Position numbers and translations under genes: made by a program
NCBI GenBank assembly: GCA_964361785.1
Contig: CAYIBX010000002.1
Location: forward strand, 21,160-85,159
DNA length: 64,000 nucleotides
DNA from: an uncultured Gammaproteobacteria bacterium
GTDB lineage: Bacteria > Patescibacteriota > Microgenomatia > UBA10105 > UBA927
Direction of reading: 5' to 3'
The notes under the pieces: generated by a model
Database searches by the model: none
What the model was told of the DNA's origin: nothing
What the model saw: the letters and a program-made list of their open reading frames with translations, nothing else
Shown: positions 210-24,200 of the stretch, piece after piece
Numbering within the stretch: the first letter of the stretch is position 1
Layout of the letters: every line of letters starts with the position of its first letter

Positions 210-3200
210 GTGTCGTACATATTCTTGATTAACACATTTCTAACTACACAAAAAACATATGATCAGAAAAACACAAAAGAAGCCTCAAAATCCTCCAGCC
301 TGATCCACTTCTTTATAGATTGTTACCTTCATTATTATAATAAAGCACAATACGGGTTTGCACCAATTTTGGCAATGATCACGATTGCCATCATCGCAAG
401 TAGTATTTTTATCACTGTGCGGGTGCTCCAGACTGGTGGGATTGCTGAGATTCGAAACTTTGCGGCACAAATAAACGATGGTGGAGGAGGGGGTACTGGA
501 AGCGGCGGGGGAGGAAATGCGCGAGGAGGCGGTGGTGCGGCAAAAGAAGATCCAGATGATCCATGTGCTGGCCTTCGGGGAGCTAAAAGAAAATTGTGTT
601 TGGAAGATATAGCCATTCCTGTGACGCCAAAGCCGGCATCAAGAATTGAGATAGATGCTGCAGATCGTGAAAGAGAGAGAATAGCACTAGAAGCTAAAGC
701 TGCAGCAGCAAAAATAAGCGAGTGTACCACAGCAAATGGCATGGTTGAGTACGCGGCTTGTGTAAAAGATAGAGAAGCAGCGGCAACGGAAAAACAAGAA
801 AGAGCGTCTGCTCCCGCAGTAGATGAGGGGAGATTTGGGTGGTGCTATACCTGTAATGGTGGCAAGGGTGCGCCAGCTGCAACTTCTGATTGGGGAAATG
901 CGAGTGTAGAAATAGCAGGTACGTATATCCAAAATGGAAAGCGATATGTGTTAAATATTGCCGATACACAAAAAGCAGCTGCAGAATATGCCGGAAATAA
1001 TCCGGGAATCTTAGATCAAACCATTGCAAACACCGAGTCGTTTGGTTTGAAAGATACCGTGTTGGAAAATCAGCAAAATGCCTACCTTGCTTGTAGAAAT
1101 GCAGGAAAAACTGATGCAGTTTGTTTGCAAGAGATAACAAAAGCACTCTTGGCAGGACAAACAAACGAACTGACGTCTGCTGCAGGCCAGGAGTGGATAA
1201 AAACAATAGAGATAGAACTTGCAAAAAATAAAGCAATTGATGAGTATGCAAGGATTCAAGCTGAACTCGAATCATGTTATGAAACAAATCAAAGCTCTGG
1301 ACCGTGTACAACTCTCGCAACGAAACTTGCGACGGTAAAGACGAATTTAGTTTCTAACTACGGTTTTACTCCGAAAGATGAAAAAGCATTGCAAGTGACT
1401 ATTGCAAAAAATGATGCGATACAAACATACACACAGACGCTCGCTTCGTATTATGAATGTTTAAATACGTGTTCTGATCTGGTAAAAGCTGGTTTAGCAA
1501 AAAAAGTGTCGGAGTTGAAAGCGAGTCTTAAAACAACGTACGATTACGTCCCCTCACTAGAACAAGAAAGGGCTGCACAGAATCAATTAGTGCTAAATGA
1601 TGCGGTTACTGCATATAACGATATAGTAAAAAAGGATGCGGAATGTAAATCTCAGTTGCCAGATTATGGGCGAGGGGTTGACCCAAAGGGTATTTGTACC
1701 CATTTTGCTGTCGAGTTATCAGCGCTTCTTGATAAATACCCGACATTAACTCAAGAAGAGAAAACACTAGTCTCAGATCAAGGATTTCAGCTTCGTGAAT
1801 ATTACAGACTTTCTTCAAAAAGTACGTTGGAGGTTTGTCAGAGTACTGGTTTGACACAACAAACAGTAGATGGTAAAGGGTGTGGAGAAGAAGTGGCGAC
1901 AAAACTTCTCACGAGTGACTTAAAACGCGCGGGGTATACAGAGAAAGAAGCAGAAAAAATAGTTACAATCGACCGTCCGAAGCAATTTGTTTCGATGGTT
2001 CTTAAAGGGAGTCCCGGAAGTCAGGAGTATGTGTGTGGACTGGCTTCTGAAACGTATGCCGATCGGCAGAAATGTTCGACTGATACTACTTTTGCGAATG
2101 AACAGTTTTTATCGTATGTACAAAAAAATGATCCAGCAAATCTTTCTCAAGCAAAGACTCGTTTATTACAGTTTGATATAGCAAATACATTGCTTTATGT
2201 CCCTCCTATTGAAGGCGTGCAGGGCGCTAAAGAAGCATACGTGAAGCAGTGTAAAGACGCGCAAACCCTGCAAACTGGTGCTCTTCGATATATCAATTGT
2301 GATAAAGCAAGCATCGACACGATTTATAGCGCGATGAAGCCAATGGTGCCCAAAGAGTTGAAGCCAGAAGTATTAGCCAAATATTTACCTGATCCATTGA
2401 TACCGCAAGCGTTACGTCCTGATCAACAAGATACTGCATACGGAAAAGGTTTTAAAGACTTTGCGGCCCTTCCAGAAAACAAAGGAAAGTCACAATTTGA
2501 ACTCGCTCAATTGTTTAGTTTTCAGCAGGACAATACGTTAGCTGATCTTTGCGCTGAGCTTGACAACAATGGCTTGTGTGAACAAACAAAAGCGGATTTA
2601 CAGGCTGGAACACTATTAGCCACAGATGTACAAGATGAGTTACACCCGTTAATTCAGGGAAAAGATGGCACGAAGACCCGTATGAATACTGTCGGGCTTA
2701 CCGCATTTTGGGAAAAGACGAAATCAACGCTCACTTCACGATTCGGATATTCAAAAAGTGCAGCAGAAAATAAAGCAATTGGTGTGGCTGCGGATGTGAC
2801 GGGCCCTGACAAGGATAAAATTATTGCAAGTCTTACACAGTTTTACGATAAAAAATCAAAGTTTGAGGCAGCAGGATATTTTCGTGCCAATGACCCCGAC
2901 AGTGAAGCGATTTTTGTAGAGAAACTTAAACGAGGTGAGTTTGATGCGACGATCGAATATAACAAAATCGATGCTGGGACGAAATTGCGGGCAGTTGTTT
3001 TTTCTGATCCAAATACGTGGCTTAGCCAACGGCTCGTGTCTCAAGAATCATTAGACGAAGCCGCAGCACGCGCTTCAAGCATCTATACCAGCGAGTATCG
3101 GCGTAATAATCCTGATTTATTTGCTACGTATGTCAGTGAAGTCGCAGGTGATGCCAACTTTACGAAATTCAAAAGAAATTTACAGGCGGGAACTTCGATA

Positions 3201-6200
3201 GATGATGCCGCAGAAAAATATCTGGAAGAGAATTTGGCCACTGCGTATCTTGAGACGGACAAGATGAACGCGGGAGTGGATTACAAAATAGAAAATAAAG
3301 ATGGGTTGCTGGCGTATGATCCGAAATGGCTGGAAACAGCAGCCCTCAATGGAAAAAATATTTCTACTCTTTCCGATGAATTATCAGTTTGGAATGAAAA
3401 ATATATCACGTTTGAGAATACATATAGCACTGTCGGAAAAGGAAGGGGAGGAGTATCAAAAGAAGTATTAGCAAAACAGCAAGCAGAGAAAGATGCGCTA
3501 TTAAACGAGCAGGCAACGATCATTGCTTCAGAATTTATAGATGCTAAAGGTATCACGGGAGAAGAAAAAACTTCTTTACTGCCTCAAGTTACTACACTCC
3601 TTCGAGATAACGATTTGCAATTCCTCATGAAATCTGGAGGCGTTGATATTACCTTTGACAAGGTGTTGGATGGTACTTATGATGCACACGCTGCATCGTT
3701 AGCCTTAGCTGATGCAAAAAAGAATAACCCACTGGTAGGAGCGGCACTAGCCCTTAATAAATTTGAAAATGGAGGATTTTTAAAGGGAGAATTATTAAAA
3801 CAAGAGTCACGGGCAACGTTATCAGAAAATAATTGTTCGTTTGGTGATCGATTTGCCGATACGACGTGTAGGCAAGCGCAATTAGATAACGCTCGTGCAT
3901 GGACCATGCAAGGAGCAAAGCCCGCTGCAACATTACTTTCTATAGCTATTCCGGGAGGTCAATTAATTCGTGCCATAGGAACAGGCATCGTTTCTTCCAC
4001 AGGTCTTTCTATTGCGGGAAATGCAATGGGGATATATATGACCGGAACGAGTGCGCAGGATACCGCTGAAGTGTGTACGGGAAGAACTGATGCGGATGGT
4101 TGGGCATGTGCGAGATCTATAGGGATGACCGCATTTTCTGGATGGTCATCGCTTGCCGGAATAAAAGGATTCACTGCGTTGAAAAATGTCGCTTTAGCAG
4201 AACAAGGTGGTGTATCTTCAGCTAAAATATTAACTGTCCTTGCTCCAGCAGATGATGCAGTGTTAAAACTTCGTACATTTGCGGATGCAGCGCCAGGTGC
4301 AGGGATGACGGCCCAAGAAATTGCAGCGTCTTCTGATGATGTAGTTCATGGTTTGATACAGAATGTATATAAGCCAGCAGTAGAAAGTGCAGCTGCGCAT
4401 ATTGGTCGTGACACACTGGGAACTTTGGTTTTTACAGCAAACGCTGCTGATACGTGCGGAAAAGCTGGAAGCTTGACGATTGATTGCGCGCTTTCTATTA
4501 GCATGGCTACAGTTATGGGTGCTCGAGCGATTACGGGACTTGCAAGCGTGATTCCAAAAGGATCTCCAATAATTTCACAGACTACAAATACAGCAATAGG
4601 TCGTTTGGATTTGGTTACCAATACAGGACAGGCAGCGGTTGCGTGTGCTGCGGCAGCAATGGGAGAAGTACCGTTTGAACAATGTGCAACGACGGTGATG
4701 ATGGCGGGATTATCAGCAGGGCAGCTGGCACTTACAGAATCCGTTGGGAAGCCAACGACGGTAGATAAGCCATTTATAGAACAAGCGCAGGCAATTGCGG
4801 ACAAAGCTGCACTTTCTAATTTTCAATCAGGGCAGGATTTGACGATAAATGGAGTAAAGGTGACTGACATAAATAGATCGACGATACAGTCTGAAGTGAA
4901 TAATCGTCTTGGGGTGACGACCAATGCAGTAGCTCGTGAGACGCAGCAGCTACTTGCGCTTTCAGAGCAGTTGGCAAAAGAAAAAGGAGTGCCAATTACA
5001 GCAGAGCGACAAAAGTTAATGGATAGTTTAGAAACACTTAAGCGATTTGTTGATGCAGACGGTGTAATAAAACGAACTATTCCTACGGGTGAAACTGAAA
5101 ATCAAGCAGGGTTGCTCGTGCCGGTTGAGCAAATGTTGGCAATACAAAAAGTTGAAGCCGCGCGACTGGCGGTGCGAGCGGCAGAGCAGAGTTACAATGC
5201 AGAAAAAGTAGCACTTAGTGCTCCTGATCGGTCGCTTCTTGATCGATTGACAGGGAGAGAAACCAAAGAACTCGCGGCGTATAGGTTGGCCGCAAAAGAA
5301 CTTTCAGATATAGCAAGTACGGAAGGCATCACGTCTTCTAAATATCTTGCAGCACTTCAGGCGACAGAATTAGCGAAAACAATTGCTACAGAGGCGCGCA
5401 TGACCCCAATTGAGCGGACGATCGCGCAATCTATTCGAGAATTGCAGTATGGTAAGAGTGGTACTGATGGACTTGTCGATTTACTAGCGAAACAAAAACA
5501 GATAGAAGTAGAGAATGAGGTATTAAATGACCCCACTCAATTTACAAAAGTTCGTGACACGTATGCAGAAGCGATAAAGAAAACTTTTGAATATGTCGCG
5601 GAATTAAAAGTCCGCCCCAATGCCCCAGAGTCTGTTATTGTCGAAACCGAGCGACTGTTAACTCGTACGCAAGAAGCGCTTGATTCACTCAATAAATTCG
5701 AAGCCGATGGACTCCTTACGGTCGGTCCAGCACAGAGAAATGCAGCGATCGCCAATAATAAAGTCAGTCAGGTAGAAGCGCTCGCACAAAGTGTCGCGCG
5801 TGTGAATGGAGAAATTGGCATAAAACAAACAGATCTCGCAAAAGCCGGATCGTTTCGAGGGAGAGTTGACTTGGCGACGAAACCAATTCGTGAAGCAATA
5901 AGCGATACCTTAACCGGAAAATCTATTCGTGAAGCGGCATATACATCACGCATTGAATACACCAACGCCTTACAGTTGGTGACCGACGCAAATAACAATA
6001 GACGTGCATTGGTAGAGAAGATCGGAGATGTTCCAACTGCTGAACAGATAAAAGAAATTGAATCATTTGATAAAGCAATTCAAGAATTGACGATAAAAGC
6101 AGATGAAGCGCTAGCAATCGCAAATGCAAAAGACAAATCCTATACATCGAGCTTGAGATATAAGTGGTTTGGACCAAAGGAAATATCGATTGCAAAGCAA

Positions 6201-9200
6201 GTTGCGGTAGCAGAAACGCTGGGTAAATTATCGGTTGTGGCAGATGCACTTACAAAAGAGGGGTTTCACATTGAGAGAAATGCTCAAAAACAATTAGAAC
6301 TGATTGATAATCAGATTAAGGAATCGGGAGTAGGTAGACCACCTTCAGAAGCGGCAAAACAAATGCTTGAAGAGGCGTCAAGCTTCTTGGGTAAAATCGA
6401 AGAAAATTTATCAAAAGCCACAGAAGGAAGAATTTCCGAAATGATAGGGCCAGATCATCCAACGCGCGTTGATCAATCAGAAATATTTATCAAAGCATTA
6501 TTTGACACGGAAATATCTGGTTCTGTAAAAGGAGTCTTATTCAACGGTCAGACAGGGTTAGGCAAGTCGGCATTTCTTCTTAATGCAATCGCTGATGCAA
6601 AAGTAAAGCTTACTGGTACAAAAGTAAACGTACTTGCCACCTCATGGGCTGATGTCTTGGGCATGATGAAAGATTATAGCCCACTAGTACATCACCAAAA
6701 TGGTGTAAAGGCAGTGTATTACAACCCATCAGGGGCCGAAATAATTTATGTCGACGAAGCAGGAGTACAACAGCGATTGTCAAATCATCAAAATGATGTA
6801 CTTGCCAAACAAATTCTTTCTGAAGCAGACGTTATTTATAGTCCGACGCTTGAAACTCCATATGAATTTCATGCATCCAGAAACAATGACCTTCTTACCC
6901 AAGGATTTCGGGAGGGGACAAAAGGCGCCATGCTTCTTATTGACGAGTTTGATGTGATTGCAAATAGCATGCAGTTTTCCTCCGGTGGCGATTCGCGACT
7001 GGCAGCTGATTACGATCCTATACGAACGCAAAAATATCGGGATGTTTTTGCCACAGGTCTTGCAAAAGATTTTATAGACAAAGCGATAACAGTGAAAAAT
7101 GGAGGATCTTTAGGAGAGGATCTTTTTGTACAAAAAGGGCAGAGTGTCGCTTTAGCCGATACAGATTTTGCAAAAGGGTTGTATAAAGAGTTGGTGCTTG
7201 AAGCCGCCAAACAAGCGTATGATAAAGTAAAAGCACAAGGGGAAACTCAAACAGCAGAAGAATTTTTACAAAAAAATAATATTACGCATGATGAGGCAGG
7301 TTTACCTCGTACAAATCCTCGAGATGTCCTTACCGCTCTTGAAAAATATCACCTAGGAAATGAGGCAACGAGTGAATTTAAGTTAGAATTTGGTGACAGG
7401 GCTGGAGTAGCAAACGCTATTGTGGAGACGGCGAGTAGGTCTACAAACGGATACGGATTTGATCCAAAAGGAATACTTGTGTATGGAGATGGTACTGGGA
7501 GACTTCAAAATACTCGTCCACAAGCGCTTTACGAAGCACTAGCGCTTGATACGGTTGGGCAAATGATAAAGAATTCAATACGGAACAAAACGTTTACCCA
7601 CGATCAGGCAATGGCCTTTATCGATAAAGTTACTGTTTCCCTTCAAGGAGAGTCCTCGTCGTGGAAACAGACACTTGGGATGGGTCATTATGCAGATAGA
7701 CTCTACGGATTTACCGGTACTCCAGAGAGTATTATTTTGGATGCACAACTATCTCTAGATATGCAGCTTGTGGTTCCTGGAGCAAAAAAACTTACGTCTA
7801 TTATTCAAATTTTTGGATCAGAGACGATAAAACCTATAAAGAATTCGGAATGGTTTGGGGCAAAAGATGTAGATAACGCGCCTATTACGTTGGGGAAAGA
7901 GGGTGTAGCTCGAATTGTCCTCGAGATGCCTGAATATACAAAAGATGTAACTTTAAAAAGCCTTCAAAAGAAGGTAAATGCATTAGGGGAAGACGTGGAG
8001 TTGATTGTAGTAAACAACGATACAAATATTGCTGAAAATGAAAAAGTAATTATTTACGATCAAGATCATACTATTAAGCGAACAATTGTTGGAGACAATG
8101 AAAAAACAGCAATACAACGATTTGAAGAAGAGTACGCCTATAAAAATAGAGGAACAAAGAGATTTGTTATGATTTTTGATCAAGGGTCTGGAAGAGGAAC
8201 TGATATTCAAGGTGTATTTACACCTACTGATGCGTCATACCTTTTTGGAAGTTCAAAAACGCTTACCCAAACATCCGCAGCCCAAGGCATTGGACGATTT
8301 CGAGAAATTCCAGATACAACCACTGTGTATTTATTTGATGGGCAAGCGGCAGATGGGTTGACAAGAATTCCTTTAGAAGACGCAACAGTTCGGCTTCTTA
8401 CCAACGAAACAGCGAGTACGCAAATCTCAATTACGAATAGTTTGATTCATGGTTATAGCGACATGGTCAAAAACACGATTGATTCGTTGGCGAGTATGGC
8501 AAAGCAGTATGGTGCGGATGATTTTACGATGACGTATGAAGGAAGAGAGATGTCTCTTTCTGATGGACTTAAATTACAATTTGATAAGGTGGGCGGGGTA
8601 AATGATGCACTCACAGAGTCTTCTCAAATAGGCACTGTGGCAATTCAAAAAGCTGCGACACGTGCTCGCGATTTTATAAATAGTATTCGTTCAACGCCTG
8701 AATTTGCTAAATTGCCGATTGAAGTTCGTGAGTATTACCTAAAAAATATTTATAACTATGAAGATGTCCCAATAGCGCTTCAAGCTGGATCACCCACAGA
8801 GTCTACGGTACGGCCAAGTTTGCAGGGAGCGACACGAATTACCGATAGAACAGCGCTTATCAATCAGGCGATATTTGAATCAGATATCGCAGCCACCATT
8901 GGTCGAGAGGGTCGCCAGACACCCACATCGTCCACGCGAGAACAACTTGCACAGATTGAGCGTGCAGCATCTTCAAGAAGCGAGGAAAGTGTAGCGGTTG
9001 CGACAAACGCAATTTCTGAAGCAAAATCAGTAATTGATAGACTTCTTACTGGCAAATCAATTACAAGCGAACAAAGACACATTGTAGCACTTGCCCAACA
9101 AGAACGAGCGAGGCTCGTAGTGCGACAACAGGCATTGGTAGTTCAGAAGTCTTCTGCGCCTCCAGATTCATCTGAATTAGAACAATTGAATACACAAATA

Positions 9201-12200
9201 GCTCAAATTGAAACAATTCTTGCTCCCATAGCAAATAGTACTGACGCGCAAATTATCGATGTGCTGAAAACGGACGCAATGAAACGTTTGAAAGCTTCAC
9301 TTACCAAATCAGGAATACAAAATGTCGATACGTTAAGTGAAGCACAATTAAATATTGCTGTAGCTGCTATGGTTACATATGAAAATGCTGTATCGCTTCG
9401 TACAGGACTTATAGCCACGAATGCACAAAGTGAACAGGCAAAAGTTGCTATCGAAGAACAAACAAAAACAGAAAGAGAAGCATTCACTAAAGCGCTTGAT
9501 GCAATACTTCTTTCATCTGGAGTGACAGCGAAGAATCTTACTTTTGAACGTGCACGATCTGACATGAGTGTCATCACGAATGCACGTGTATCGGAAACAG
9601 TCTTATTTACTGATGGACGACGAGTCCTTATTACTGATGAAGCACAGAAACAGGCGCTTATAAAAGAAAAGCAAGGCGTTATTACAGCGCCACTTTTTAG
9701 TAGTCTGGAAGATGCATCGTTTCAAAAAATTATTGCGTATCAGCAAGAGCGATTGTTGCAGGTATCCAAAGCAACACAGTCAAATAGAATACAAGTATTT
9801 GGACAGTTTGTTGTGAAAAATTGGCAATCGTTTCAGCAGGCATTTCTTCCGCGCTGGGCATCTGTCGTGAATCTATCCCAATTTGGACAAAATCAGACGA
9901 TAAATAATCTCGCTTCCGCAATAAATGCAAAAGATTATATGACTGCGTATGCAATGTTTAATACATTGCGAACAAATGCCAAGAAAAATCCTGATGTATT
10001 TGAAAATGCAGATAGTCTGATGCGCGCTGATGCCGCAGCTCGTTTGAGTATTGTGCTAAACGGCGCAGTAATAAGCCCAAGCGTGACAGAAGTTGAAAAT
10101 ATAGTGTTGTATGAAGCGAGTGCGATTGCGTTTGCACAAAAAGCTTTAAAGAACACCAAAGTGATTGATTATCAAACATTCTTTGAGGCTGCATTTGAGG
10201 ATGATTCTGTGCGTACATCACTTGTAGAAGCGGAAAAGGCATTTGACGCACTTTCTCTTCCACAAGGTATTACGCGGGATAGTTATAACAATGGGTTACG
10301 AGAGGCGATTGATCCAATCATGAATTCTGTATATGCAGTGTTAAAACTTGATGAAAAAATTGCAGCGCGAGATGGGAAGCGATCCACAGTGTCTCAATCT
10401 GGTTCTGTCGATATAAATGTGATTATCACCGGCATCTCTGCATCAGATTATTTAAACGCGTTTTTAGCAATCGACACGCTTGTGGCGGCTGGGGACACAA
10501 CTGGGCGCGACCGAATATCGCAAGCGATACGGGATGATATTAGGGAACGATTAGTGGCACAACAAGTCCCAAGTCCGTCTGAGGAATTAATCACTACCAT
10601 TTTTGATTACCAAAAAGCAGTAGCCAAGAGAGCGTCGGTATGGAAACAAAGCCCGCTTCCGAGTCCAGCGGCGGGGGCAGCGCCAAAAGATTTGTTTAGA
10701 GAGTTTGTAGAAAACGATCCAGAAGTGTTGGCTTCAAAAATAAAGGCTCTTGAGTTATTAAAGGTGGAATTTACTGAATCAAAAGCAGAAGCACTATTTT
10801 TGAGTATCACTGAACCAATTATCGCTTCTACCCGCATTGCAATGGAAAATCGACAACCAAATATTCAAAACGTGACAGGACAAGCTGTACAGCCTGTTCA
10901 ATCTTCCCATCAACCTCGTTTAGAGCCAAATGGGTGGGTGAAATTTGGAAATGTAATTAAGGCAATTATTGCACCGAATGTTTATGCAATTTATGCTAAA
11001 CGTTATTCAACACCTGAATTAACCTTTGCGATCGCAAGCATTATTCCACGATATGCAGCGCCGATAGTGTTTATGGGGCCTGCTGGTATACCGATTTCTC
11101 TTGGAATTGCAGTGTATGATATTGCGCGGACAGCGTTGGAATTACCTTTTTATATAATCGCACATTGGCCGAGAGTGCAGAGTTTCTTTTTGGGAGACAT
11201 ACATATTCTGGATGGATATCCACGTTTGAAAAAATTTGTCGATTGGGTGGTACCGAAAGATGCGCAACAACTAGTGGTAAACGTGTTGGCGGATAGTCGG
11301 GAAGGATATCTTGAGAGTTTAGTAAACGCGACGATGTTTGATGCAGGAAATCCACAGTGGACACCATTAACTTGGTTTACGAGCATATTTACACATACAA
11401 TCACAAGGATTCGCCGTCCCTATTTGTTAGGGTGGGATATATATAGAGCAGAGCGACGGTATGTAGAAGGGGTGACAGGGAAAACTGCAAAGCTTATAGA
11501 CGCCGGATATGAAAAGCCTGACTACTGGAACAGAGGTGGACGCATGTTTGGTCTAGCACCAAGGCGGTTGATCAATGCGACGCCGACGAATGATTCACTT
11601 ATTTGGTGGACAACTCGCGGGCCAGCGATAGTTCTTCTAATTGCCGGAATTGCGACGTGGTGGATACCAGGAGCACCGCTTGTTATTGGTTTAGCAGCGA
11701 CTATTTTAGGTCTGACAACGGGTCCATTTTGGCATTATGATGCACATCGATTCTTTTATGGCGATGGATGGAAAAGTTTGGGATACGCAGCTACATATAA
11801 TCCTCTCGATTGGAAATGGTTGCCACCTCCTGAAATTGCACCTGTTCAAGCACCTTCACAACCAATGCAACAGGTTGCTACTCCTGTCGTCCAACCAACA
11901 CCTGCTCGCGTTAGTTGGACTCGTCGAACGGATGGATTATTTCAGTTTATCAATGCTACACCACAGGGGAGTTGGAGGAAATATTTTGGATCGCGAGCAA
12001 TAGTGATACTTTCACCAGCACCGATACCATCATTGTCATTTTATACAACCAGCGTTATCGCTCGTGCAGCATTTGTAGGAGTATATGACGGATTCCGTTT
12101 GATTCGGTATGTATGGGAAAGTACAAGAAAACCAGTGCAACAGACATCCGTTATTGCTCCCACAGCCCAAGCTCCAGTTGCAGTGACACCGATAGATTTG

Positions 12201-15200
12201 AGTCTTTATGAGCTTTTAGGAACTGTATTTGAAAATCAAGTTATATATTTTGGGCTAGATGTATCTGGGGCATTGATACTAACTACAGTCCAGTCTGACT
12301 TACAGACGCAGTATGGCCACACCAACTGGAGAGATGATGGCACAATAGCGTCACTATTTTTCACTATAGATCGTTTTGGGATAAAGGATTCACAGGGATT
12401 TGATATTCCCACAAATTCTGAATTAGAAATTGTGCAAGATCAAATACAATTTCAGATAAATAACCAAAAAACGGTGTTTGCAAGAAATAGTGATAGCTCA
12501 TATTCTGTCTACAAAGAAAAGGTGAGCGTGCCAGCAACAGACGAGTTTGCTCGTAAAAAAAAGGAATCTCTTGATAGACTCAATGCACTTATCGAAAATG
12601 AATTAGACTATCGAGGGATCCCAGAATCCACGAGGCGTGAGGCTGACAAATATACAGATGCACTTATTGATCAACTCAAACAATTTGTGCAATACGGTCC
12701 AAATTGGAAACAGGAGCTCGCAAAACAATATCCGAGAACATTGGAGCTATTGGGAGCATTACGTTTGCGAAATGTCACGTGGATCGATCAGCCTGTATTA
12801 ACCAATGCTATTTTAGATCACGAAGCGATTCGTCCAGTGGTTGTTGGTGGATTGGCACGGCTGTTTAACGCAGTAGATCAGATACCAAGTGGCACGAAAG
12901 AAATAGCTGATCGATATAACCAACAAGTCATAGCGTTGGATAATACATACAACGTACAAGGATTAAGCGATGTTGAATTGGAGGAATTTGAAGCAGGGTC
13001 CTTACAAACTGTAGCAGAATTTGCGCCCGGTGCTGATGGAGTATTTCTTAGAAAATTTGAGCGAGCGTTGTTGGGAGTAAGCGAACAACCAAGTAAAGAG
13101 TGGATTGCACGGTTAAACCTTCATGAGAACATTCATAAAGGACAAGCAATAGGGCCAAGAGGGCAGCAATATAAAGAATTAGGGGCAATTTATGTAGAGT
13201 GGAAGTTGACCGGAAGCCACACATCTTATGGCGATTTGCGTTGGGAAAATAAACTTCAACGGCTCGATGCATTATTTGGCGAAGGAGTAATATGGCGGTT
13301 TGCCAGAACTGGAGATCCATCCGAATTGGTAAAAATTATATCGGAAAAACGATGGGGCACTCTTGCATCAGTTTTAAAGCAAGAAGGATTTTTAACTGAT
13401 AGAGAAATTGATCAACTTTATTATGGCGAAGCAGATCAAGCAGCAGCATCAGTACAACCGCGCGTGCCGATTGACCAAACGCAGCCAATTGTAGAACCTG
13501 TAGTGCCGCAACCAGCACCTGTATCAAGATATAACTATATAGAAGGGGCTACGAATATATCTCTTCAATTACCGGCTAATGGTCAGATTGGTGAGGGCGT
13601 AGAAGTGTTTGTGACCTATTCAATAGGAGGAAGTGAGCTTACAGAAATTGCAACAGTAATAAATAATGAGGGAGTTGAAGGTGTTCCAACAAGTTGGATA
13701 GTGAAGTTACAAAGTGAAGAAAAGTTTCTGAAAGTTTTAGCAGAAAATGTTGTGTTCCCTGCGACAGTAGCAGAGGTTTCATTAAAGAGTGTATATACAC
13801 AAGCGCGATCATTAGCTTCGTTTCTCGCATTTGCAGATGCTGATCCGTATCTGAATTCAACGCCTTTTGATCTTGTTGAGCAAGATGGATCTACACGAGT
13901 AGTTACGGCTTCACAGGCGTTACAGTTGTATGCGGAATATGAATTAGATGCGTCCACTGATCGTCAAAAGGAGCGGCCGATAAATTTGACAGAGTCAATA
14001 AGAACGATATTAAATCTTTATGACGGACGCGTAACGAATTGGTTTGGTACGCTCATGAGTCACGAGAGAAAACTTCAAAAAAGAGATGCTGAATCAGCAG
14101 AACAAAAACAAGAAATTCTGTCAGATCATCATTTTGCTATTACCAGATTCAGTGGTGATTCAGAACCATTACATGCGCTGATTGATACAGGAGATTATAG
14201 ACTTCTAGATACAAATTTTTCTGGTTGGATGTATGCAAAACAAAATACAGGATTACCGCAGGTAATTACAGAGTATGAAGATAAAACCTTTGATTATACG
14301 CATGACTTAGTATATAAGCTGCATGTTGCCTTAGACGAACGTGATTTCTCCACTGCTCTCCCTGAAATTACTCAATTCCTTCGGTCACAAAATTTCCAAC
14401 ATAAAGTAATGGCGAATAAAAGTGTTATTGATAAGGAAGGAAAGTCTATCACTATTATATTTTCTTCTGCGCAAGAGGCAAAATTGATCATAGAGTATTT
14501 CAAGAATTTGGCAAAAAGAAATGTTCAAGGTATTACACCAGTGTATGCAAAAGATAAAGGTATGATGTTGCAGTATGAATTACCGATTCCAGAAACGAAT
14601 AATCTTTTATACTATACGATCGAATCGGTGGCTGGAACATACTTAGGGTCTGGGCTTACTGAAGGGGTCATCGTTGATGGTCAAACATATAAAGGAGGAT
14701 ATACAGATCGGTTGATACTCATGCAGCGTTTTTGGGGGCATGGTCCGATAGATGATTTATGGCCACAGGATCCCTTCATTGATAGACAAGAGCCGGTATT
14801 AGTCGAGGTTAAGAAGCCTAGAATAGCAATTGATCAACCGCAAGGTCAGTCACAAGATGTCAAAGATCAAATTATTGAAATTAATTCGATTTTGATAAAA
14901 ATATTGGCGGCAGTTTCAGAAGTTGAACTTTCACATCTTCATGATTCAATGTCTCAGTCAAACGTTGAATTATTACTGTCACTATTTAAAGACTCGTTTG
15001 GTAAAGCAAATATCGAAGTATTCCCTGAAGCAACTTCACTGTATGGGTTATTGCAAGCGCTTAAATCTGACACGTTTCAAAAGGATGTCAGTGCAATTAC
15101 AGATCCAGTAGTGGCAACGAAATTAATTATAGAATTGAACGTTGTACTTTCGGGATTAGATAAGGTGAATGCACAAATAGCAAAAGAGCAAGGATCAATT

Positions 15201-18200
15201 CCATCACGAGTTACACAATTGGTAGATAAAGGGATAGAAGCTCTCCAGCAGCCACTTGAGAATAATGCACAAGTAATTGCATTGTTGCAGCAAGTATTAG
15301 ATGAGTTTAAAAAGTCTGGCGGAGTTGTTCCCGTTCAACCAATAAAGACGGTTGATCAGGCAGTGACTGCGTTATCTGATCCTGTAACATATGCAGGAAT
15401 GACAGGATATGTTGGAGATGTTTCTACATTGATGACAGTTGCAATTTCTGCAATGGAAAAAACTTCTCTACTGAAAAAAGAAGCAGCGCAGTTGAAAAAA
15501 GTAGTGCCACTTTTGGAAGCTGGATTTATGCCAGTCGCGCTGTTACCAGCTCACGCAACGCCTGTTTCTACAAAAACTACAACAGAGACTGCGTCAGACC
15601 AATTTGAACGTATTGCGAGAGAGGGTGAGCTAGAGCGCTTACAACTGCTTACAGATTTGCCATTGTTAGGTTTTCAAAAAGGAATTGGTTGTTCGGATTG
15701 CCAAAAATTCGTAGAGAAAATCACGGCATTATTTAAGCATGTTGAAAAATATTCAAGTGCAAAAAATTATAACCTTGTCTTCCGTATATTGGATATTATT
15801 CAAAAAAATATAGATGCAGAACACGACCTACAGCTTGATCCAGACAATCCGGTCATAAAGAATGAATTTGTCTTTACAGCGCTCAATATGTATGTGGCAG
15901 ACAGACGCGTGCAACTTTTGCGTGCGCAGGATGCTACTGCAAATGCGCAAGCGATAGCATTACAAGAATCATTACAAAAGAGATTTAAAAAGGCCTTATT
16001 TGACCGAATTACAGATGTACTTGATGTAAGTAAGACGCCTGATGCAGAGTATAGTAGGCTTACTCCTGATCGTTTGAAACTTAACGCTTTTCAGGCATAT
16101 ATGGACACAGTGGTGCGCGTTGGAATACCTACAGACATTCTATCGGTAGAACAATTTGTAGACACATCACCACCTGTAACCAAGCACGTGTGGCCAACTA
16201 TAGGTGAGTTTGATGGAAAGCAAATACTCGTGCTGACTGATACAGAAGACAATAACAGGCAGGTTGGCTTTCTTGCATTTTCAAGGGTGGGTGAAGACAT
16301 AGTGATCTCACATCTTTTTGTAGACATCGGGTATCGAATGGGAGCAACAAGCAGACTGCTTCAGATGGTACGCGCACTGAACGAAGATGCCAAAAGTATC
16401 CAGTTTGATCCACAAACATTTAGTGCGATAGGGGTAGAAGTAGGGAAAAATGGGGATGAAGATACAAAAGCGCTTATAAAACAGTTGGATGAGTTTGGAA
16501 TACAAAATACGCCAGTGGAGTCTTTGGATGCGCCTCTTATTGCTCCTGTGGTAGCCCAAGCTGCCATAGAAGAACTTCAGGTGGCGATTATGGATGGGAA
16601 ACTGGATCAGAAAGATCTTGATGCGCTTGGTGGGTTGGCGATAGAAGTCTGGAGTGAAGGGCTGAAGACAATAACAGATTATGTCAAAATCATAGTGGAA
16701 AAGCCATTTGTCTACACGGATCCAGATGGTGAAATTACATCGCTTCTTGCAGCCAAAAATGCGCCGAAGAAATCAAGCATGGACATTCAGGCGGATGCGG
16801 TTCGTGCCGCGTATCTGACCGAAGACGCAAAAGATCTCACGGCTTTCGGGACTCTAAAGAAATTATTTTCTATGGATACTGTATTTGCATCATGGGTAAG
16901 AGCGATAGAAGGGGGAGACACCTTTGCTCCAACGAGAACCCAAAAGGAACTTACAAATTTTGCATCGACACTTGTGGATATGTGGTTGGTTGAAGGCCGT
17001 AAGACTATTACGGATCTTAACGCGATAGATACACAAGCCCAAAAGGCTGCCAAGATCATAGTAAAAGACTTACGCGCTCTTATAGATCCAAAGGGCGATC
17101 TACCGATGAGTGAGACAAAATTGTTAGAGGTTCTTTCTACGCTGACTGGAAAGACTACTTTTGATACTCTTGAACAATTTGTTACCTACTTACTTATTGG
17201 AGATGAAAATTTGAAGGCAGATCTTGATTTGCGGTTATCAACTGCAGCTCAAATAGCAAGTAATGTGAGAAGTTCTTTGACTACGGGAATAATTGCTCAA
17301 ATGTTACCTACGATTTATAAGGTGCAACAAGATATACAGGCTGTACCTGTGGGAGCGACTGAAGCTGATTCAACGACAGCGTTATTGTTACAAACCATCA
17401 CAAACTATAACAAAATTGCACCAAAGAACTTTCGATATGTAGAGGCAGATCGGGTTATTCTCAATTCTATACAAGATCGTATCAATGCATTCGTTTTGTT
17501 TTTGAGAACAAATAACGTGTGGAATGGTGAAGAATCTATACCTGCTCCAGAAAATGTACAAAGTCTAAAAGTTCCTGGATTTTTTCGTTTAGCGTCGTTA
17601 GTGACGAGACCGTCAGTACTACTGCCATCGTTGGAAGAAATGGATAGTAGTCAGTCATTTAACGCAGCTATCAGACAAGCATTTTTTGCAGGAGTAGCGC
17701 CAGTAGTAAATCCAATAATTGAACTTGGAGCCGTACGATCTATGAGTATGTTGCGGAAATTAGACGCAATTGAAAATCTTTTTTTAGCTGCAAATGAAAT
17801 TGTGTCCGACCGACAACTTCGAGTGCTTGCTTTACAAGGCGCATCAGATATAGCGCTTGAGGAGCGAATATTCAATCTTCTCGATACAACATGGCAACTG
17901 ACTCCTGAAGAGTTTACAGATGCAGGGACGGATAGATCCTCGTGGATGACACAAGTAATTGCAGCCGTTCGCCAAACGTACGCCACAGAGCGATTGGCAC
18001 AGATAGAAAAAGAAGATCAGGAATTACAAGCAAAACTTGATACATTTTTTGCAACCTTAGACGTACAAGAACAAAAGCGTTTACAGATAATCGTAGATCA
18101 AGAGGAAAAATTGAGAGCTGCAGAAAAAAGATCTGTTCAGCGAGAGGAACTTCGACAACAAATAGCAGAACGTAGGGCACAAATATCACCACTCGTGCAA

Positions 18201-21200
18201 GGATTACAGTCTCTTGCTGACCGTATGGCTCTATTCCCATCATCAAACACCACTCGCATAGCAACGAGAGCGCTAAAAAGTGTACTCAATACAGCAGGGT
18301 TGTCGGTGACAAAAGAGACTCCATTAGCACTTTTAGAAGAGCTTGGGAAGCTACGTGGATTACCAAAGGATTTGGAAAAATTAGAAAAAATATCAGAGGC
18401 ACTACTCGCGTTTGAACAAGCGTTACAATCGCAGCGGCCTATATATGAGCGTCAGGTGACGAAAAAATTCAATGCTATTGTCGAGAAAGCAATACGAGAT
18501 GAGATTGCCACGCAAGTCGCTCGCAATACGCCACATCTTGCTATAGATAGGCAAATAGAAGAGTCTGAAAAAGAGACAGAGTTGTTGTTGGAGCTGGTTA
18601 GGTTGAGAGCAGAACAAGCGAGACTCGCTGATTTTCAAGGAATACTTGATGTGGAAGCGGAAAAATTAGCAGAGGCCGACAAATTAGTTCTCAATCCTAG
18701 CTTGATAGGGAAGGCTTTGGAGTCACCGAAAGATGATGATAACGTGAAAAGAATTGTTCTCAATGGAAGTGCTTCTCAATTACACTTACAAGTGCTTCGA
18801 AGAATAGGTGGAGGGGCAGAAGGAGTTGTTTATCTCGTGGAAGTGTTATCTGATTCGCAACGAAACGATGTCCCTCAATATATAGCCGCAAAAGTATTGC
18901 TAGATACCAATTCTATGGAGCCAATGTTGGCAGAAATGGTCTATGAAATAGTGGAAGCAAATGAAGATGCAGACTTGTTTGTTGATACAAATCATCACTA
19001 TGTCTATGCAAATTATTCCAATTTAGAAGATGGAGTGGTTCTTATGGAATATATTCCTGGGAAATCCATTTATGATTCACAGTTAAGTATTAAGGATATA
19101 GAAATAGCACTAGCAGAATATGTTCATTATTTATATTTATTATCTCAACAATCTATAGTGAATATGGATCCTAAAATGGAAGCGACGTATTGGGATGAAT
19201 CTGCAAAAATGATTCGAATATTAGATGTGGGTGGGATGCGATATGTTGAATTAACTACCGAAGAATATGCTGAAGTTTATAAAGAAGATAAACCAGATGC
19301 GGTTACGATTGCTAAAAAAATGAACAGCGCAATAATGGCAATCCCGAATATATTTGAAAGCCAATTGTTAGACGAGAGAGGAAATTATAATGGATATTTA
19401 TATGAAAAAGCTAAGTTGCGAAAAGCAATGGTGGATCAATTTATTACAATATTGTCTAATCGAGGTGCAGCGCTTACCAATGAACAAAAACAACAAATTA
19501 AGCAGTTAATAAACTCTGATCAGTTTAAAAATGAAACTAAATTTTATAAATATATATTTCTTAAATCATTTGGATTACTCGAGGAGAAAAATTCACGTTT
19601 TTCACCTGCATGGTATCGAGAGTTTCTTTTTGATATTCGTTCTCAAGCTTTAGATAAGAGTGTTTTGCCTCCATCGCTTCAGTTTACTTATACTGCTCAG
19701 GAGGGTGTCCAATCTCTTGAAAGAATAGATAAATATACCGTAATTAATTTGGATATAGACAAGTCAGATGATAAAAAAAGTTCAGTCTTGCAAACAGAAC
19801 AGATGAAAGCGATTGTGCAATCAGTCATCAAATCCTTTGCTACACGGTTTGGATTGGTTACTGGTCAAGAAAAGATTGTGGATGATGCAGTAAAGATTGT
19901 GAGTCAAGCAGGATTGGCGGCGACATTACCAAGCGTGAAGATGATTACAGATGTGCTGGATGCGAGTACAGAGTGGGAAGCGACACAACCATTAATTGCT
20001 AAACAATTTGATGGGATTACCAACCAAGCCCAACTTCTAGCTATTTACGTTCGTGTTGCATTAGCAGTTGATGTGAGCCATATCAAATTAGTTCCTACTG
20101 TACTAACTCAAACACAATTAGCCATCGAGGCGTTAGAGAAAAATACGAGTCTTCCAAAATTGAAACAAAAATATACGTCCTCTGATGCATTCCTCAAAGA
20201 TCCTCAAGTTACACAAATAATTCAAATCGCACTTTTTAACGCGCTTCTTGGCAAAGATGTTACAGAAAACGAACTCACAAATCTTGCCTTGATTGATACG
20301 AAATTTGGCATAAATAGTAAAGAATTTACCATTCTTATTAACTTTGTTGGGGAGTATGTTTTTAACCTACCCAAGAAGAATGGGGCGACACCACCAGAAG
20401 GAGATGGAGCGCGGGGTGGAGGCGTGAAGACTAGTGGAGAAGGAGGATTGACTGCATTAGAAATTGCTGCGGCAAAATTAGCAGAGAAAAACAAACTTCT
20501 CCTTCAACTTGAAGAAGAAATGATAGCATTTGAAAAATCGAATGTGGCAAAAGACAAAGCGAAGAGGGAAGCTATAACCTCTCTGGTTATCAAGATTCAG
20601 AAAGAGGAGAAGGCTCAGGAAGAACAATTTGCCAATTTTGCAAATGCTGATTTAGCCAATCGTATCGCAGAAACATTAACAGACAAGCGGCTTGCAGAGT
20701 TCCTTACTACACCATTGGGTCAACTCGTTACCCTTGACAGTAAGGCGGTCGATCAGAGCACGTTGACTGTGAATATTCGAGATGTCCATGCGCTTCTTGA
20801 GAACCTTTCTCAACAACAAAATGTCCAAGAAGCACAGCGATTTAAGTTAGCACTCTCTCGAATGGATGAAATGCTTCGTCTCCAAGATGAACGGATAAAA
20901 GAAGAACTTAGGTTTCAAAGGATAGCAGAAGAGAGCGCTGAAAAGACTGCATTTAACAATGGTATTGCTCAAATTTCTCAAGTAGTTCAGGTTCAACAAC
21001 AAAGGGTATTACAAGAGCTATTACGAAAGAACCAACGCACAGAAGAGTTACAAGCAAAAATTTTATCTGTATTAATTATGGCAACGGGAAATGAAAACGC
21101 CATAGCAAAAGCATATCGTGGAGGAGTGGGGATAGACAAATTGAGGCAAGAAATCAAGCGTTTATTGAATGCAAACAAGTTGACCGACAGACTGCTTACC

Positions 21201-24200
21201 CAGTATGAAACCGGCTCTACTCAGGATACGCTTATAGAAGAGATGCTTCTTGTTCTTGATGAACTGTATCAAGAATATCGTGATGTAGTGCTTACGAATC
21301 CGCAGTATCAATCAACGCTTTCGTTTAAAAAACAGGTTAAAAAGAATGTAGAAGAGGTGCTCTCTCTCACCTCAGGTCAGGCAATTCGCATAGCACAACA
21401 AGTGGAAAAAGATGCACAGTCGTTAGACTCAAAGTCCCAAAAGGATGACCTGAGGTCTTTTGCACAGGATTTGACAGTTCGCGCGAGGCTACAGGCTGTC
21501 GCAGCAGAAGTACTTGCAGATGAAAAAGTAGGAAATGCCTATATTGGGAATATTGATGATCTAACTGTTCGTTCACTTATTTTTGATGCCATTATGTCGC
21601 GATTAGGTGAAAATGCGGAAGAAATATTTGCGGACGCAGGGACAACACTTCAGGATATGAGTTTTGAAATCTTCGGTAACCTCGATGCAAAATACAGGGA
21701 AAGTAGAGCTTCCGTGAGAAAACGACAGGATGAGGCATGGAGACTGTCTATTTTTAATGTGCAAAAAACCACAGTGGTTGAGCGAGTTCAAACGCTCATG
21801 GGAGTCACACTTCCAGAAGCAGTAAATCTGGCTCCCATTGACGTTGCCTCGTTTATTTTAAGAATTTCTCGAGATAGAGGCACTATTGGACGATACAGGA
21901 AAAAATTAGAAAAACGATTGATGGTCGATAGTCGCATTCATGAGATGTTAGTTCAGGGAAACGGTATAAGTGAGGCTACTGAAGCGGTGAGAGATTTTAT
22001 ACATGAGACGTATCCTGAGTATCGCGCATTAGGGGTGGTTAATGATACATGGATTGATGACGTGGTAAAAACACTAAGAAAAAATACAGAAAAGGAGCGG
22101 CTTGTCTATTTGAGACAATTAGCAGCTCTTCGAAAAAAAGAGCAAGCGGAAAATGCGACAGCTGCTAAGCAGTCAGCAATAGAACGAACGAAAGAACAGC
22201 GGCTTAATGAGTTTAACGTCATGTTGGAGTCGATACAGAAAATTGGATGGATTGCATTTGAGAAAAACAATTATGAAGCAATTCCTGACATATTACGCAC
22301 CACCCTGTTTAGACCGGATGAGTATGATTCTCTTCGATTTCCAGAATTAGCTGTGTTAGACGATATCATTAGTCGGTTTGTATCGAATGCGATACAAAAT
22401 GGAAACGTTAATAATTTGCAATGGAATATAGCAGAAAATGAATTGTTTAAAAATTCTCTTTTTGTTGATCAATATGTGACAAGTGCTGAGCGAACAGCGG
22501 CTATAGAAATTATGAGATACCTTTTTGCCGTGCATGTACAGACTGAACTCAATGATCTTAAACGAACCTTAATACAAAAAAATCCTGTCAAGCAGTCTGG
22601 TGCAGTATATGCAGTGTTGGATTCCTTAAGGTTCGTCTCTTTTAAGCTCAATAGTATTAAGTCATCCAGAGACGGTTTGGTGTTTAACAGATTTGTTTCA
22701 AAAACTGATGTAGCTGCGATGTTTTTGTCAAAGTCTTTATTTGTAACGTTTGATCCGTATGTTCATCAAGAGGTAGGTAATGAGTCGATGATAGTGTATG
22801 TGGGACGAGAACGTGTGTCGATAAGAACAGATGAAAAACGAGATATTCGTTTACCTAACGGAAACATTGCCATAGTGAGCCTGAAACGCATGTTTTCGAA
22901 ATCGTATGAAGTATCTATTACAACAGGAAATAATACCGTCATGATTCCAATTCACTACGAAAAAGCACTTTCTTCTTATTTACCACAGCAGAAAAAAGCT
23001 CCTTGGGGAGCATATGTTTTTGCGGGCATTATGTTGGCAAGTGTCGTAGTTGGATTTCTAACTTTTGGAGGTTCTGTGCCGTTCACATTAGGTCTTCCGA
23101 TGATTGGTGGATTATTGATGACTGGCATCCTATACACGCCAAATCTATCAGCGTTTATTCATCCCACTGAGTGGTCTCAATTGCCTGATTCCTCAGCATA
23201 TACGACAGAAAAAATGCTCGCAGCAGCACCAGTAGTTCCTGTTACACAATCAAGTGTAGCAAATCAGACTGATCGATTAGCTACCGTTAAGATTCAAACG
23301 CAAGGGGTTGCACGGCCAGCAGGGGGCTCCAGTAGTGTTGTCACGGATACTGCACAAGTTGTATCAACTAACGTTAACGAACAACTAATGAAAAATCGTG
23401 ATCAACAAGTCACACTCATTCGATCATCAGCCCTATCATTTGCTACTACAATACAGTCAATAGCACAGGCGTATGTGGGCATTGAATTATCTGAATCTGA
23501 AGCAGATGACCTAGTGTTAGTTTCGCAGGATATCAATACTCTTTCTTCAGTAGATGCAATTGACGTCATAAAAATAACCGAACGAGTTAATTCGTTCATC
23601 GCAACGCCCCTTGGTCAAAAGACTATTGGTCTCATGCAACACGTAAGTCAAGCAGACTCTGTGCGGGCAAATAATTATTCCAATATGAATACTTCAATTG
23701 AGGCGATGAGTTCTGATATTTCTCAGCATTATTTTGGTGGTACTCAAGGAGTCGTGGAGATGAGTGTAGTGAATTTGGATACAGGCGAAACATTTGGGAC
23801 TCAACAACAAACAAAAGTTCAAATGAAATCTAATCTAAATATAGTACAAGTTTATGTGTTGATATCTTTGCTTGAGCAGCAAGGTCATACAGGTGCCGAA
23901 TTATTGTCATTTACACCAGAGGGAATAGGAGGCCTGACTGTTCAGCAAATTATAGACACGTTGTTAACAGAGCATCAAGATTTAGAAGGTAAGATAGCAG
24001 CAAAGCTGCGGATATATTTAAGTGACCCTTCTAGAGAAGAAGCTGTCACTGCTTCTTTATCAAAGACGGGACTTCTTAACACTGATTTAAAGACAAGTAC
24101 TTCAACTGTATCTGATATTTCTACATTTTGGGCATTTGTAAATACAAATGGATTTCCAGATGATGCAGCTTCAAAAGCTATTGTTCGTGCTCTTACTACT

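Follow-up and report, generated by a model that had tools for sequence, protein, structure and literature searches.

A giant membrane protein of Patescibacteria carries a conserved and extremely divergent P-loop ATPase module that may be built on the plan of SecA

Giant proteins are among the least understood products of uncultivated bacteria, and how a multi-pass protein of 13,000 residues is inserted into a membrane, or exported across it, is an open question. The locus described here puts that question in a particular form: does such a protein carry an export motor of its own? In the window (the whole stretch of 64,000 nucleotides analysed here, from contig CAYIBX010000002.1), a single open reading frame (ORF) of 13,468 codons, corresponding to a protein of 13,468 residues, occupies positions 210..40616 of the + strand, on which all the features of this protein discussed below lie. 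Within it, residues 2046-2905 (6345..8924) form a conserved block, hereafter module 1, delimited by its BLASTP and phmmer alignment with a distant homologue, P0008; a second ATPase module, module 2, is found much further along the same ORF, at 27027-28619 (aa ~8940-9470). The initial annotation had read the first of these as a SecA-like motor of helicase superfamily 2 (SF2). Judged by its sequence, module 1 is a conserved P-loop ATPase, and its best reading, which we consider highly probable, is that of an SF2-type ATPase with two lobes; that it is related to SecA itself we consider only somewhat more probable than the contrary.

The giant gene is a real gene, because its reading frame is also open in four related loci (L001, L002, L008 and L009) and because module 1 differs from its 87%-identical orthologue in L001 by 237 codons with synonymous changes only, against 88 with non-synonymous ones. 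The motifs of module 1 are thus real and under purifying selection. The start of the ORF is uncertain, since the GTG at 210 is merely the earliest start codon that follows a stop. Judged by the closest stop on the upstream side in L001, the start would lie near residue 14 of the window protein, and the methionine at aa 56 falls inside a hydrophobic segment (aa 50-68), the sole strong one at the N-terminus.

All of the motifs listed by the initial annotation are present in this frame and in the order it gave, at positions that were either exact or off by 1 to 12 nt. The series opens with RVDQSEIF (6465..6488), whose glutamine (aa 2089) stands 24 residues ahead of the P-loop; in alignment A3, which includes P0008, columns Q10 and D20 are invariant, and we infer that this is the Q-motif of SF2 and SecA enzymes. 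Motif I, or Walker A, is GQTGLGKS (6546..6569, aa 2113-2120), of which GxGK[ST] is invariant in all clades. It is followed by a motif Ia-like strand and helix, KVNVLATSWADVLG (6621..6662), which hhalign places against GVHVVTVNDYLA of SecA and which is also the stretch that resembles DnaC, and by a motif Ib-like segment, ADVIYSPTLETPYEFH (6825..6872), which the same program aligns with ADITYGTNNEYGFDYL of SecA and whose D128 is invariant in A3. Motif II, or Walker B, is MLLIDEFD (6930..6953, aa 2241-2248); it sits 126 residues past K2119, in keeping with the 100-130 or so of SF2 enzymes, its DE pair is invariant in all clades, and it reads LLVDEFD in L009 and LLADEAQ in P0008.

Between motifs II and III lies an insert of about 220-250 residues (6996..7664), mostly predicted to be helical and present in all clades, which measures 251 residues from D2248 to Y2499; its C-terminal part, GILVYGDGTGRLQNTRP..ALALDTVG (7470-7559), is weakly similar to the preprotein cross-linking domain (PPXD) of SecA. 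The motif III region that follows, KQTL..HYADRLYGFTGTPES...QLVVP (7665..7799), is conserved more strongly than any other motif in the family: it contains YGFTGTPES (7704-7730, aa 2499-2507) and QLVVP (7764-7778, aa 2519), and in alignment A4 the residues G-F-T-G and P are invariant, with G-F-T-G-[TS] kept throughout. An alpha/beta pattern at 7887..8345 then marks the putative second lobe, which holds motif V, GSGRGTDIQG (8184-8213, aa 2659), and motif VI, QGIGRFRE (8280-8306, within AQGIGRFREI at 8280-8309, aa 2691), followed by TTVYLFD (8319-8339, aa 2704); all of these stretches are in the frame of the giant ORF. The block ends with an extension conserved with P0006 and P0008 (IPLEDATVRLL, GYSDMVKNTIDSL and PEFAKLP..REYY, 8346..8924). 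A pattern of five ordered motifs (Walker A, hhhhDE, [ST][GA]T, [GA]RG.D, Q..GR), loosely spaced and chosen post hoc, is matched a single time by the real protein (aa 2113-2696) and not at all by 3000 residue shuffles.

How far do these motifs hold outside this protein? Among 1.84 billion representative proteins, searched exhaustively, there were only eight relatives, several of which are fragments of orthologues; a word-index search returned close fragments only, and a genome scan and a metagenome scan gave two further loci each, among them the 55%-identical L009. This last locus has intact the lineage represented by P0004 and P0005, which are 49-55% identical to module 1, while P0006 is 34% identical. 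P0008, a giant protein of 7,512 residues, is 21-25% identical across module 1, aa 2046-2905 aligning with its residues 1648-2513 (BLASTP E=9e-16; phmmer against the whole library E=1.1e-6). The Q some 24 residues upstream of the P-loop, GxGK[ST], the D-E of LL.DE, G-F-T-G-[TS] and Q..GR.R are invariant in all clades, the last four being thus kept in relatives down to 21-25% identity. P0008 even has textbook forms of several motifs (TGSGKT, LLADEAQ, YGFTGTPD and QAAGRDRG); its motif V is decayed (GAHYGVD).

P0008 and the window protein have just two blocks in common by BLASTP, module 1 and a C-terminal cysteine-rich domain with a HEFFH sequence, the latter being the best conserved of the two (E=6e-35). 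Since P0008 has nothing but these in common with our protein, module 1 and not module 2 is, on the alignments, the conserved motor of this giant-protein family. We lean, without great assurance, towards the view that module 1 and the HEFFH domain make up the core that is conserved within a small Patescibacteria family of giant envelope proteins.

Whether the module is specifically akin to SecA is more difficult to decide. Compared by hhalign with a profile of 38 canonical SecA sequences, the module 1 family gives P=1.5e-4 over 469 collinear columns, with every motif in register, and the full-length score is 44.6 against 18.6+-2.9 for column-shuffled profiles. We have nevertheless rejected this full-length match as specific evidence, since it is largely a generic P-loop effect. 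In controls with single sequences from E. coli, DnaC (8e-5), UvrB, DeaD and FtsH equal or exceed SecA by way of the P-loop region, and SecA alone gives P=0.11 with the module 1 family. FtsH can reach P=0.005 on a non-cognate alignment. Because the controls revealed this effect, we have put the weight on tests that exclude the P-loop.

For the second lobe (aa ~2530-2702), a hidden Markov model (HMM) of the second nucleotide-binding domain (NBD2) of SecA gives 11.0 bits with module 1, against a maximum of 8.3 in the null set (0/1000 shuffles reach the real score); the corresponding counts are 4/1000 for L009 and 14/1000 for P0006, so that the real sequences beat 1000, 996 and 986 shuffles out of 1000, respectively. 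By hhalign, the C-lobe matches the SecA profile with P=5e-4 at the cognate motif V. Among single sequences, RhlE (0.012) and SecA (0.03) both align at cognate positions, the non-SF2 controls McrB, DnaC, ABC and FtsH give P of at least 0.15, and the other SF2 controls, DeaD, UvrB, HsdR and RapA, do no better (P=0.25-0.53). In phmmer shuffle tests of this lobe the best matches are UvrB for module 1 (3/500) and RhlE for L009 (0/500).

On the N-terminal side, the lobe deprived of its P-loop matches the SecA HMM with shuffle P-values of 0.022 for module 1, 0.006 for L009 and 0.03 for L001, and the motif III region aligns with the SecA profile at the cognate GMTGTA position (hhalign P=0.0024). The SecA HMM that we built gives only weak matches, at cognate positions, with conditional E-values of 0.001-0.5. 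Finally, the N-lobe of P0008 matches positions 22-134 of Pfam ResIII, from Walker A to DEAQ, with E=0.001, or 3e-4 when the insert is removed, and Pfam DEAD with E=0.0025-0.013. It is because the P-loop-free lobe tests, the motif III region and the ResIII match of P0008 agree that we favour an SF2-type enzyme with two lobes.

The insert brings a further argument for SecA, being located exactly between motifs II and III, where SecA has its PPXD, in a protein that already holds a SecA-like module 2. With a PPXD HMM, the real score is reached by 0-1/1000 shuffles for P0008, 1/1000 for L009, 50/1000 for module 1 and 133/1000 for P0006, a weak signal in the last 110 residues of the insert, and P0008 can be followed in alignment with the SecA HMM from the PPXD motif 'DYVV.D..V..D..GR' via 'NY.R' to GFTGT. 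Taking the lobes and the insert together, we think that module 1 (aa ~2046-2905) is, by a modest balance of probability, a catalytically competent and extremely divergent SF2-type ATPase on the SecA plan.

A number of results weigh against this reading, besides the single-sequence controls given above. With hmmscan, module 1 has no significant SF2 or SecA match in Pfam, NCBIfam or PADLOC; SecA_DEAD and P-loop_SecA give no match at E<=10 for any family member, P0008 included, and neither do Helicase_C and SNF2 for module 1, the only trace being Pfam ResIII at E=0.15-0.32, together with local P-loop matches in NCBIfam. The profile searches proposed by the initial annotation have thus given nothing significant for module 1 itself: of its SecA-like SF2 module, what is supported is the conserved P-loop ATPase and the large insert at the place of the PPXD, with tests that favour an SF2-type second lobe, and what is not supported is a significant match of module 1 to SecA. 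Phmmer and hmmsearch against the PDB, run both for the complete module and for its lobes separately, return only matches at E>0.2 (Vasa, p97, dynein and unrelated proteins). The ResIII score of P0008, 19.4-21 bits, is below the Pfam gathering cut-off of 22.5, and its C-lobe has no SecA signal with the NBD2 HMM (353/1000 shuffles). The insert is not significantly similar to the PPXD by hhalign (P=0.26-0.6), and in motif VI a single residue, not two, separates the arginines (GR.R).

No scaffold or wing domain was found after the second lobe, and extending the hhalign alignment past this lobe brings no gain in score. Homology of 8346..8924 with the helical scaffold domain (HSD) of SecA, proposed on the likeness of 'GYSDMV' to 'YDDV', is unsupported (shuffle P 0.05-0.56). 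AlphaFold2 models have a mean predicted local distance difference test score (pLDDT) of 39.9 with a shallow alignment and 41.8 when P0006 and P0008 are added, with 56-75 in the second lobe over part of that lobe only; with either of these low-pLDDT models, Foldseek found nothing but noise in the PDB (TIM barrels, ribosomal proteins and HIV reverse transcriptase).

The strongest library matches lead elsewhere. The only library-significant matches of module 1 are to DnaC-like AAA+ families: PHROG 3277 ('DnaC-like helicase loader') matches aa 2105-2205 with E=2.2e-5, with three members hit (best 1.8e-6), and the DnaC, DnaI and IstB models of NCBIfam give 7e-5 to 0.014, DnaC reaching 7.3e-5 for one member. 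One could then suppose that the N-terminal part is a DnaC/IstB-like AAA+ domain, with Walker A at aa 2113, Walker B in IIYVDEAG (aa 2178) and a sensor-1 strand in DVIYSPT, and that the helicase motifs downstream are coincidental. The hhalign match to E. coli DnaC (P=8e-5 over 81 columns), the weak PDB matches to the AAA modules of p97 and dynein, and the fact that DnaC still matches the N-lobe of module 1 without its P-loop (0/1000 shuffles) would all be in favour of this. The segment responsible is EIIYVDEAG (6738..6764), which resembles LLVIDEIGVQ of DnaC: read as EIIYVDEAGVQ (6738-6764), it mimics the Walker B of DnaC and drives the significant PHROGs and NCBIfam matches. It is not conserved, being YADAEG even in the 87%-identical L001, FFDTTS in L009, FFDAGG in P0005 and ILDGTN in P0008, whereas the LL[IVA]DE located 63 residues further on is invariant. 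The P-loop-free DnaC signal is itself weak in L001 (39/1000) and lost in P0008 (213/1000) and L009 (447/1000), and the match to PHROG 3277 is a local one, limited to profile positions 9-106 of 168. The invariant GFTGT, the Q..GR.R and the SF2-like alpha/beta pattern of the C-lobe would moreover be left unexplained, and P0008 matches SF2 models over a spacing of about 120 residues between Walker A and Walker B. We have thus rejected the DnaC-like reading, which we consider most improbable, because neither the AAA+-spaced Walker B, to be expected about 55-60 residues past the P-loop lysine, nor the DnaC signal is conserved in the family; as far as the alignments go, the resemblance is local and lineage-specific, within the shared ASCE (additional strand, catalytic glutamate) core, and is not a property of the family. 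The initial annotation had named an unrelated P-loop family as best match as what would refute its SecA reading, and such a match is indeed there in PHROG 3277 (E=2e-5), without being a conserved trait of these proteins. For automated annotation, the pseudo-Walker B EIIYVDEAGVQ is a caution.

A more serious competitor, which we still find unlikely, is that module 1 is a generic SF2 helicase or translocase of the ResIII, DEAD or DinG kind, working on nucleic acid and not akin to SecA, with an insert that would be an unrelated, lineage-specific accessory. The GFTGTP or TGTP form of motif III is typical of HsdR, ResIII and SNF2 enzymes, unlike the GMTGTA of SecA, which is a point against SecA. 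The best Pfam matches of the family are likewise to ResIII and DEAD, not to SecA_DEAD, PADLOC gives weak DinG and Csf4 matches with P0008, the DEAD-box protein Vasa comes out best in the PDB profile search with module 1 (E=0.26), in single-sequence tests E. coli SecA fits the C-lobe no better than RhlE and UvrB do, and module 1 has no similarity to module 2. What this explanation accounts for less well is an insert placed exactly between motifs II and III with a weak PPXD-like signal, a GRGTDI identical to motif V of SecA and a Ib-like segment resembling ITYGTNNE.GFDYL, as well as the context, a giant membrane protein with a SecA-like module, in the annotation of which no recognisable nucleic-acid-binding or nuclease domain was found near module 1. 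Loss of activity is a different matter: module 1 could be a degenerate pseudo-ATPase of SF2 descent whose role has been reduced to that of a structural or interaction scaffold, as its extreme divergence, the lack of any matching library model, the decayed motif V of P0008, the atypical arginine spacing of motif VI and the mere eight relatives among 1.84 billion representative proteins might suggest. We think this very unlikely, since it is exactly the catalytic residues that are still invariant at 21-25% identity (the Lys of motif I, D-E of II, T-G-T of III and Q..GR.R of VI), and purifying selection is strong. A catalytically competent SF2-type ATPase on the SecA plan is the reading that we retain.

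The status of module 2 is much clearer. It matches SecA_DEAD of Pfam with E=5e-16, and P-loop_SecA and Helicase_C weakly; it matches the SecA2 structure 4UAQ with E=6.6e-14, the alignment continuing through the PPXD, and its database matches are canonical SecA proteins in 38 cases out of 38, at 21-30% identity, mostly 22-25%. On this sequence evidence, module 2 is a true and unambiguous SecA-like motor. No similarity between module 1 and module 2 was detectable by BLASTP or hhalign.

If module 1 is a motor, on what could it act? The distribution of cysteines in the giant protein offers an indication. There are 31 of them between aa 119 and 1492 (564-4685), paired at regular spacing (i, i+3 to i+17), with pairs that recur about every 50-70 residues up to aa 790 and are then followed by four wider-spaced pairs at aa 1209-1492, and 16 more in aa 13084-13466, within the last 385 residues (39459-40607); the central 11,600 residues have only 8, including the CxxC pairs at aa 5161/5164 and 10098/10101. 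Because cysteines crowd both ends and are nearly absent between them, we propose a cytoplasmic centre, which would hold module 1, and the composition suggests that the two ends are extracytoplasmic and disulfide-bonded. Hydropathy gives strong membrane segments at aa 50-68, 3604-3645, 3797-3837, 7601-7650 and 12898-13035. Between the anchor at aa 50-68 and module 1 there are only weak hydrophobic segments (aa 1239-1270 and 1419-1448), which weighs against this topology: since no strong segment separates the anchor from module 1, the cytoplasmic location is unproven.

In the mechanism that we have in mind, the first RecA-like lobe would comprise the Q-motif, motif I (K2119), Ia, Ib and motif II (D2245/E2246); the insert of about 250 residues would take the place of the PPXD, ahead of motif III, GFTGTP; and the second RecA-like lobe would contribute GRGTDI, with R2662 corresponding to the arginine finger of SecA, and Q..GR.R. 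Located in the cysteine-free centre, presumably in the cytoplasm, the module would bind and hydrolyse ATP in the cleft between its lobes, so that lobes and insert would move, and this movement might drive a polypeptide across the membrane, most plausibly the cysteine-rich N- and C-terminal parts of the protein itself. By analogy, then, the most likely function would be that of a membrane-tethered, SecA-like motor aiding the export of the giant protein's own parts; the fold with two lobes, the kinship with SecA, the place in the cytoplasm and the substrate are all things that we infer. Such self-export has already been proposed as the role that SecA-like domains play in the giant proteins of Omnitrophota (bioRxiv 10.1101/2023.11.21.568195).

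One may go further and imagine a whole clade of SecA-derived motors invisible to Pfam, each a built-in, membrane-tethered exporter of the disulfide-rich ends of its own protein, or of partners, acting independently of the housekeeping SecA, so that the giant protein would be the self-contained secretion machine of an episymbiont. We offer this as a speculation that we rather doubt.

Apart from the two motors and a GNAT acetyltransferase domain near aa 12,650 (38043-38357, aa ~12612-12716; Acetyltransf_7 E=5.6e-6), hardly any of the giant protein could be annotated. The C-terminal cysteine-rich domain (39714-40610, aa 13169-13467) carries a HExxH motif, in VAVHEFFHIW; it has no sequence match in Pfam or the PDB, and it may be a zincin-like protease. 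At 18795-19283 (aa ~6196-6358) there is a glycine-rich loop, GGGAEGVVY...AAK, and the region weakly matches the bacterial Ser/Thr kinase YabT (PDB 6G4J, E=0.0027); its stronger matches, to designed 'Bagel' beta-propeller repeats, look like repeat artefacts.

The source organism is represented by a metagenome-assembled genome (MAG) of the Patescibacteria, or candidate phyla radiation (CPR), the closest genome record being JBBTUH010000028, 'Patescibacteria group bacterium'. The locus L002 (CAYIXE010000002.1), whose giant gene is 88% identical to the module of the window, is labelled 'uncultured Gammaproteobacteria bacterium'; because the closest named relative is a Patescibacteria MAG, the public record probably contains an error of binning or taxonomy here. 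The giant gene is followed downstream by a cell-envelope glycosylation cluster at 41154-63849, with two ArnT-like, mannosyltransferase-like PMT_2 proteins, a YfhO-like membrane protein and two GT2 glycosyltransferases, and further a hexapeptide acyltransferase, an S-adenosylmethionine (SAM) methyltransferase, a dTDP-sugar epimerase-like protein, an NPCBM-domain protein and a TPR protein. P0008, for its part (L010 232-22770, Logan SRR21285575), carries a LytR_cpsA_psr domain, the mark of a family of cell-wall glycopolymer ligases, and two genes of the sulfatase/phosphodiesterase family follow its gene in L010; this domain and these downstream genes tie the giant-protein family to functions of the cell envelope.

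Should module 1 indeed be derived from SecA, the association of a giant membrane protein with a built-in SecA-like ATPase would extend to the CPR/Patescibacteria, and standard annotation would undercount such motors, this one being missed by Pfam, NCBIfam and sequence searches of the PDB. The module is a compact construct of 860 residues with clear catalytic residues, which could be expressed and tested. The controls also hold a lesson, in that the P-values of profile-profile comparisons between P-loop proteins can be dominated by the P-loop, and need controls free of it.

With respect to canonical SecA, organised as NBD1-PPXD-NBD2 followed by the helical scaffold and wing domains (HSD/HWD; Pfam PF07517 SecA_DEAD, PF01043 SecA_PP_bind, PF21090 and PF07516; PDB 1M6N, 2FSF, 4UAQ), module 1 has its Q-motif, I, Ia, Ib, II, insert, III, V and VI in the same order and at roughly the same spacing, a DExD-type Walker B (DEFD against the DEVD of SecA), a G[MF]TGT with a VVP about 18 residues further on, the identical GRGTDI, an LED motif after the last strand and a Ib-like stretch comparable to ADITYGTNNE.GFDYL. 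It differs in being covalently part of a membrane protein and without significant sequence match, in an insert of about 250 residues instead of about 150, whose identity with the PPXD is not demonstrable, in GFTGTP for GMTGTA and GR.R for GR..R, in an extra beta-hairpin in lobe 1, and in lacking the helical scaffold, the wing domain and the C-terminal tail. Module 2, in the same polypeptide, likewise has a P-loop, a DExD box and an insert ahead of motif III; unlike module 1, it matches SecA_DEAD, P-loop_SecA and SecA/SecA2 structures, including the PPXD span.

To DnaC and IstB (PHROG 3277; NCBIfam PRK07952), module 1 is locally similar from the P-loop strand and helix 1 through strand 2 and helix 2 (..LTG.KV.VL....AD.L..MKD..) and in VDEAGVQ; its AAA+-spaced acidic motif is not conserved, the similarity is gone in the 55%-identical lineage, and it has neither a lid domain nor an arginine-finger region. 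The SF2 N-lobes of the ResIII and DEAD families (Pfam PF04851 and PF00270) are the family's best Pfam matches and ResIII has the same TGTP motif III, with scores below the gathering thresholds; to our knowledge, these families have no 250-residue insert between motifs II and III.

The closest known parallel is with other giants. The initial annotation had thought an ATP-driven motor in a giant membrane protein unusual, and this no longer holds, such proteins having been reported in Omnitrophota and Actinobacteriota: West-Roberts et al. (2023, bioRxiv 10.1101/2023.11.21.568195) describe divergent SecA_DEAD domains without scaffold or wing in most Omnitrophota giants and some of those of Actinobacteriota. 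Like the 'Archaeovorin' and 'Dockerin' proteins of Omnitrophota and the giants of Actinobacteriota, the protein studied here combines a divergent SecA/SF2-type ATPase, devoid of scaffold and wing, with several thousand residues, multiple membrane segments and a mostly unannotated sequence in which enzyme domains such as an acetyltransferase are scattered. Our literature search found no report of a SecA-like motor in giant proteins of the CPR. What is new is a family too divergent for the curated libraries, found in Patescibacteria, that coexists with a SecA-like module and is nevertheless the one conserved in the family. The motors of the Omnitrophota and Actinobacteriota giants are recognised by Pfam SecA_DEAD and SecA_PP_bind, whereas module 1 is not; the host here is a Patescibacteria MAG, and the protein has 13.5 k residues rather than more than 30 k. 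It also has two motors, a recognisable one in module 2 and a cryptic one in module 1, and it is the cryptic one that is conserved in the 7.5 k-residue P0008.

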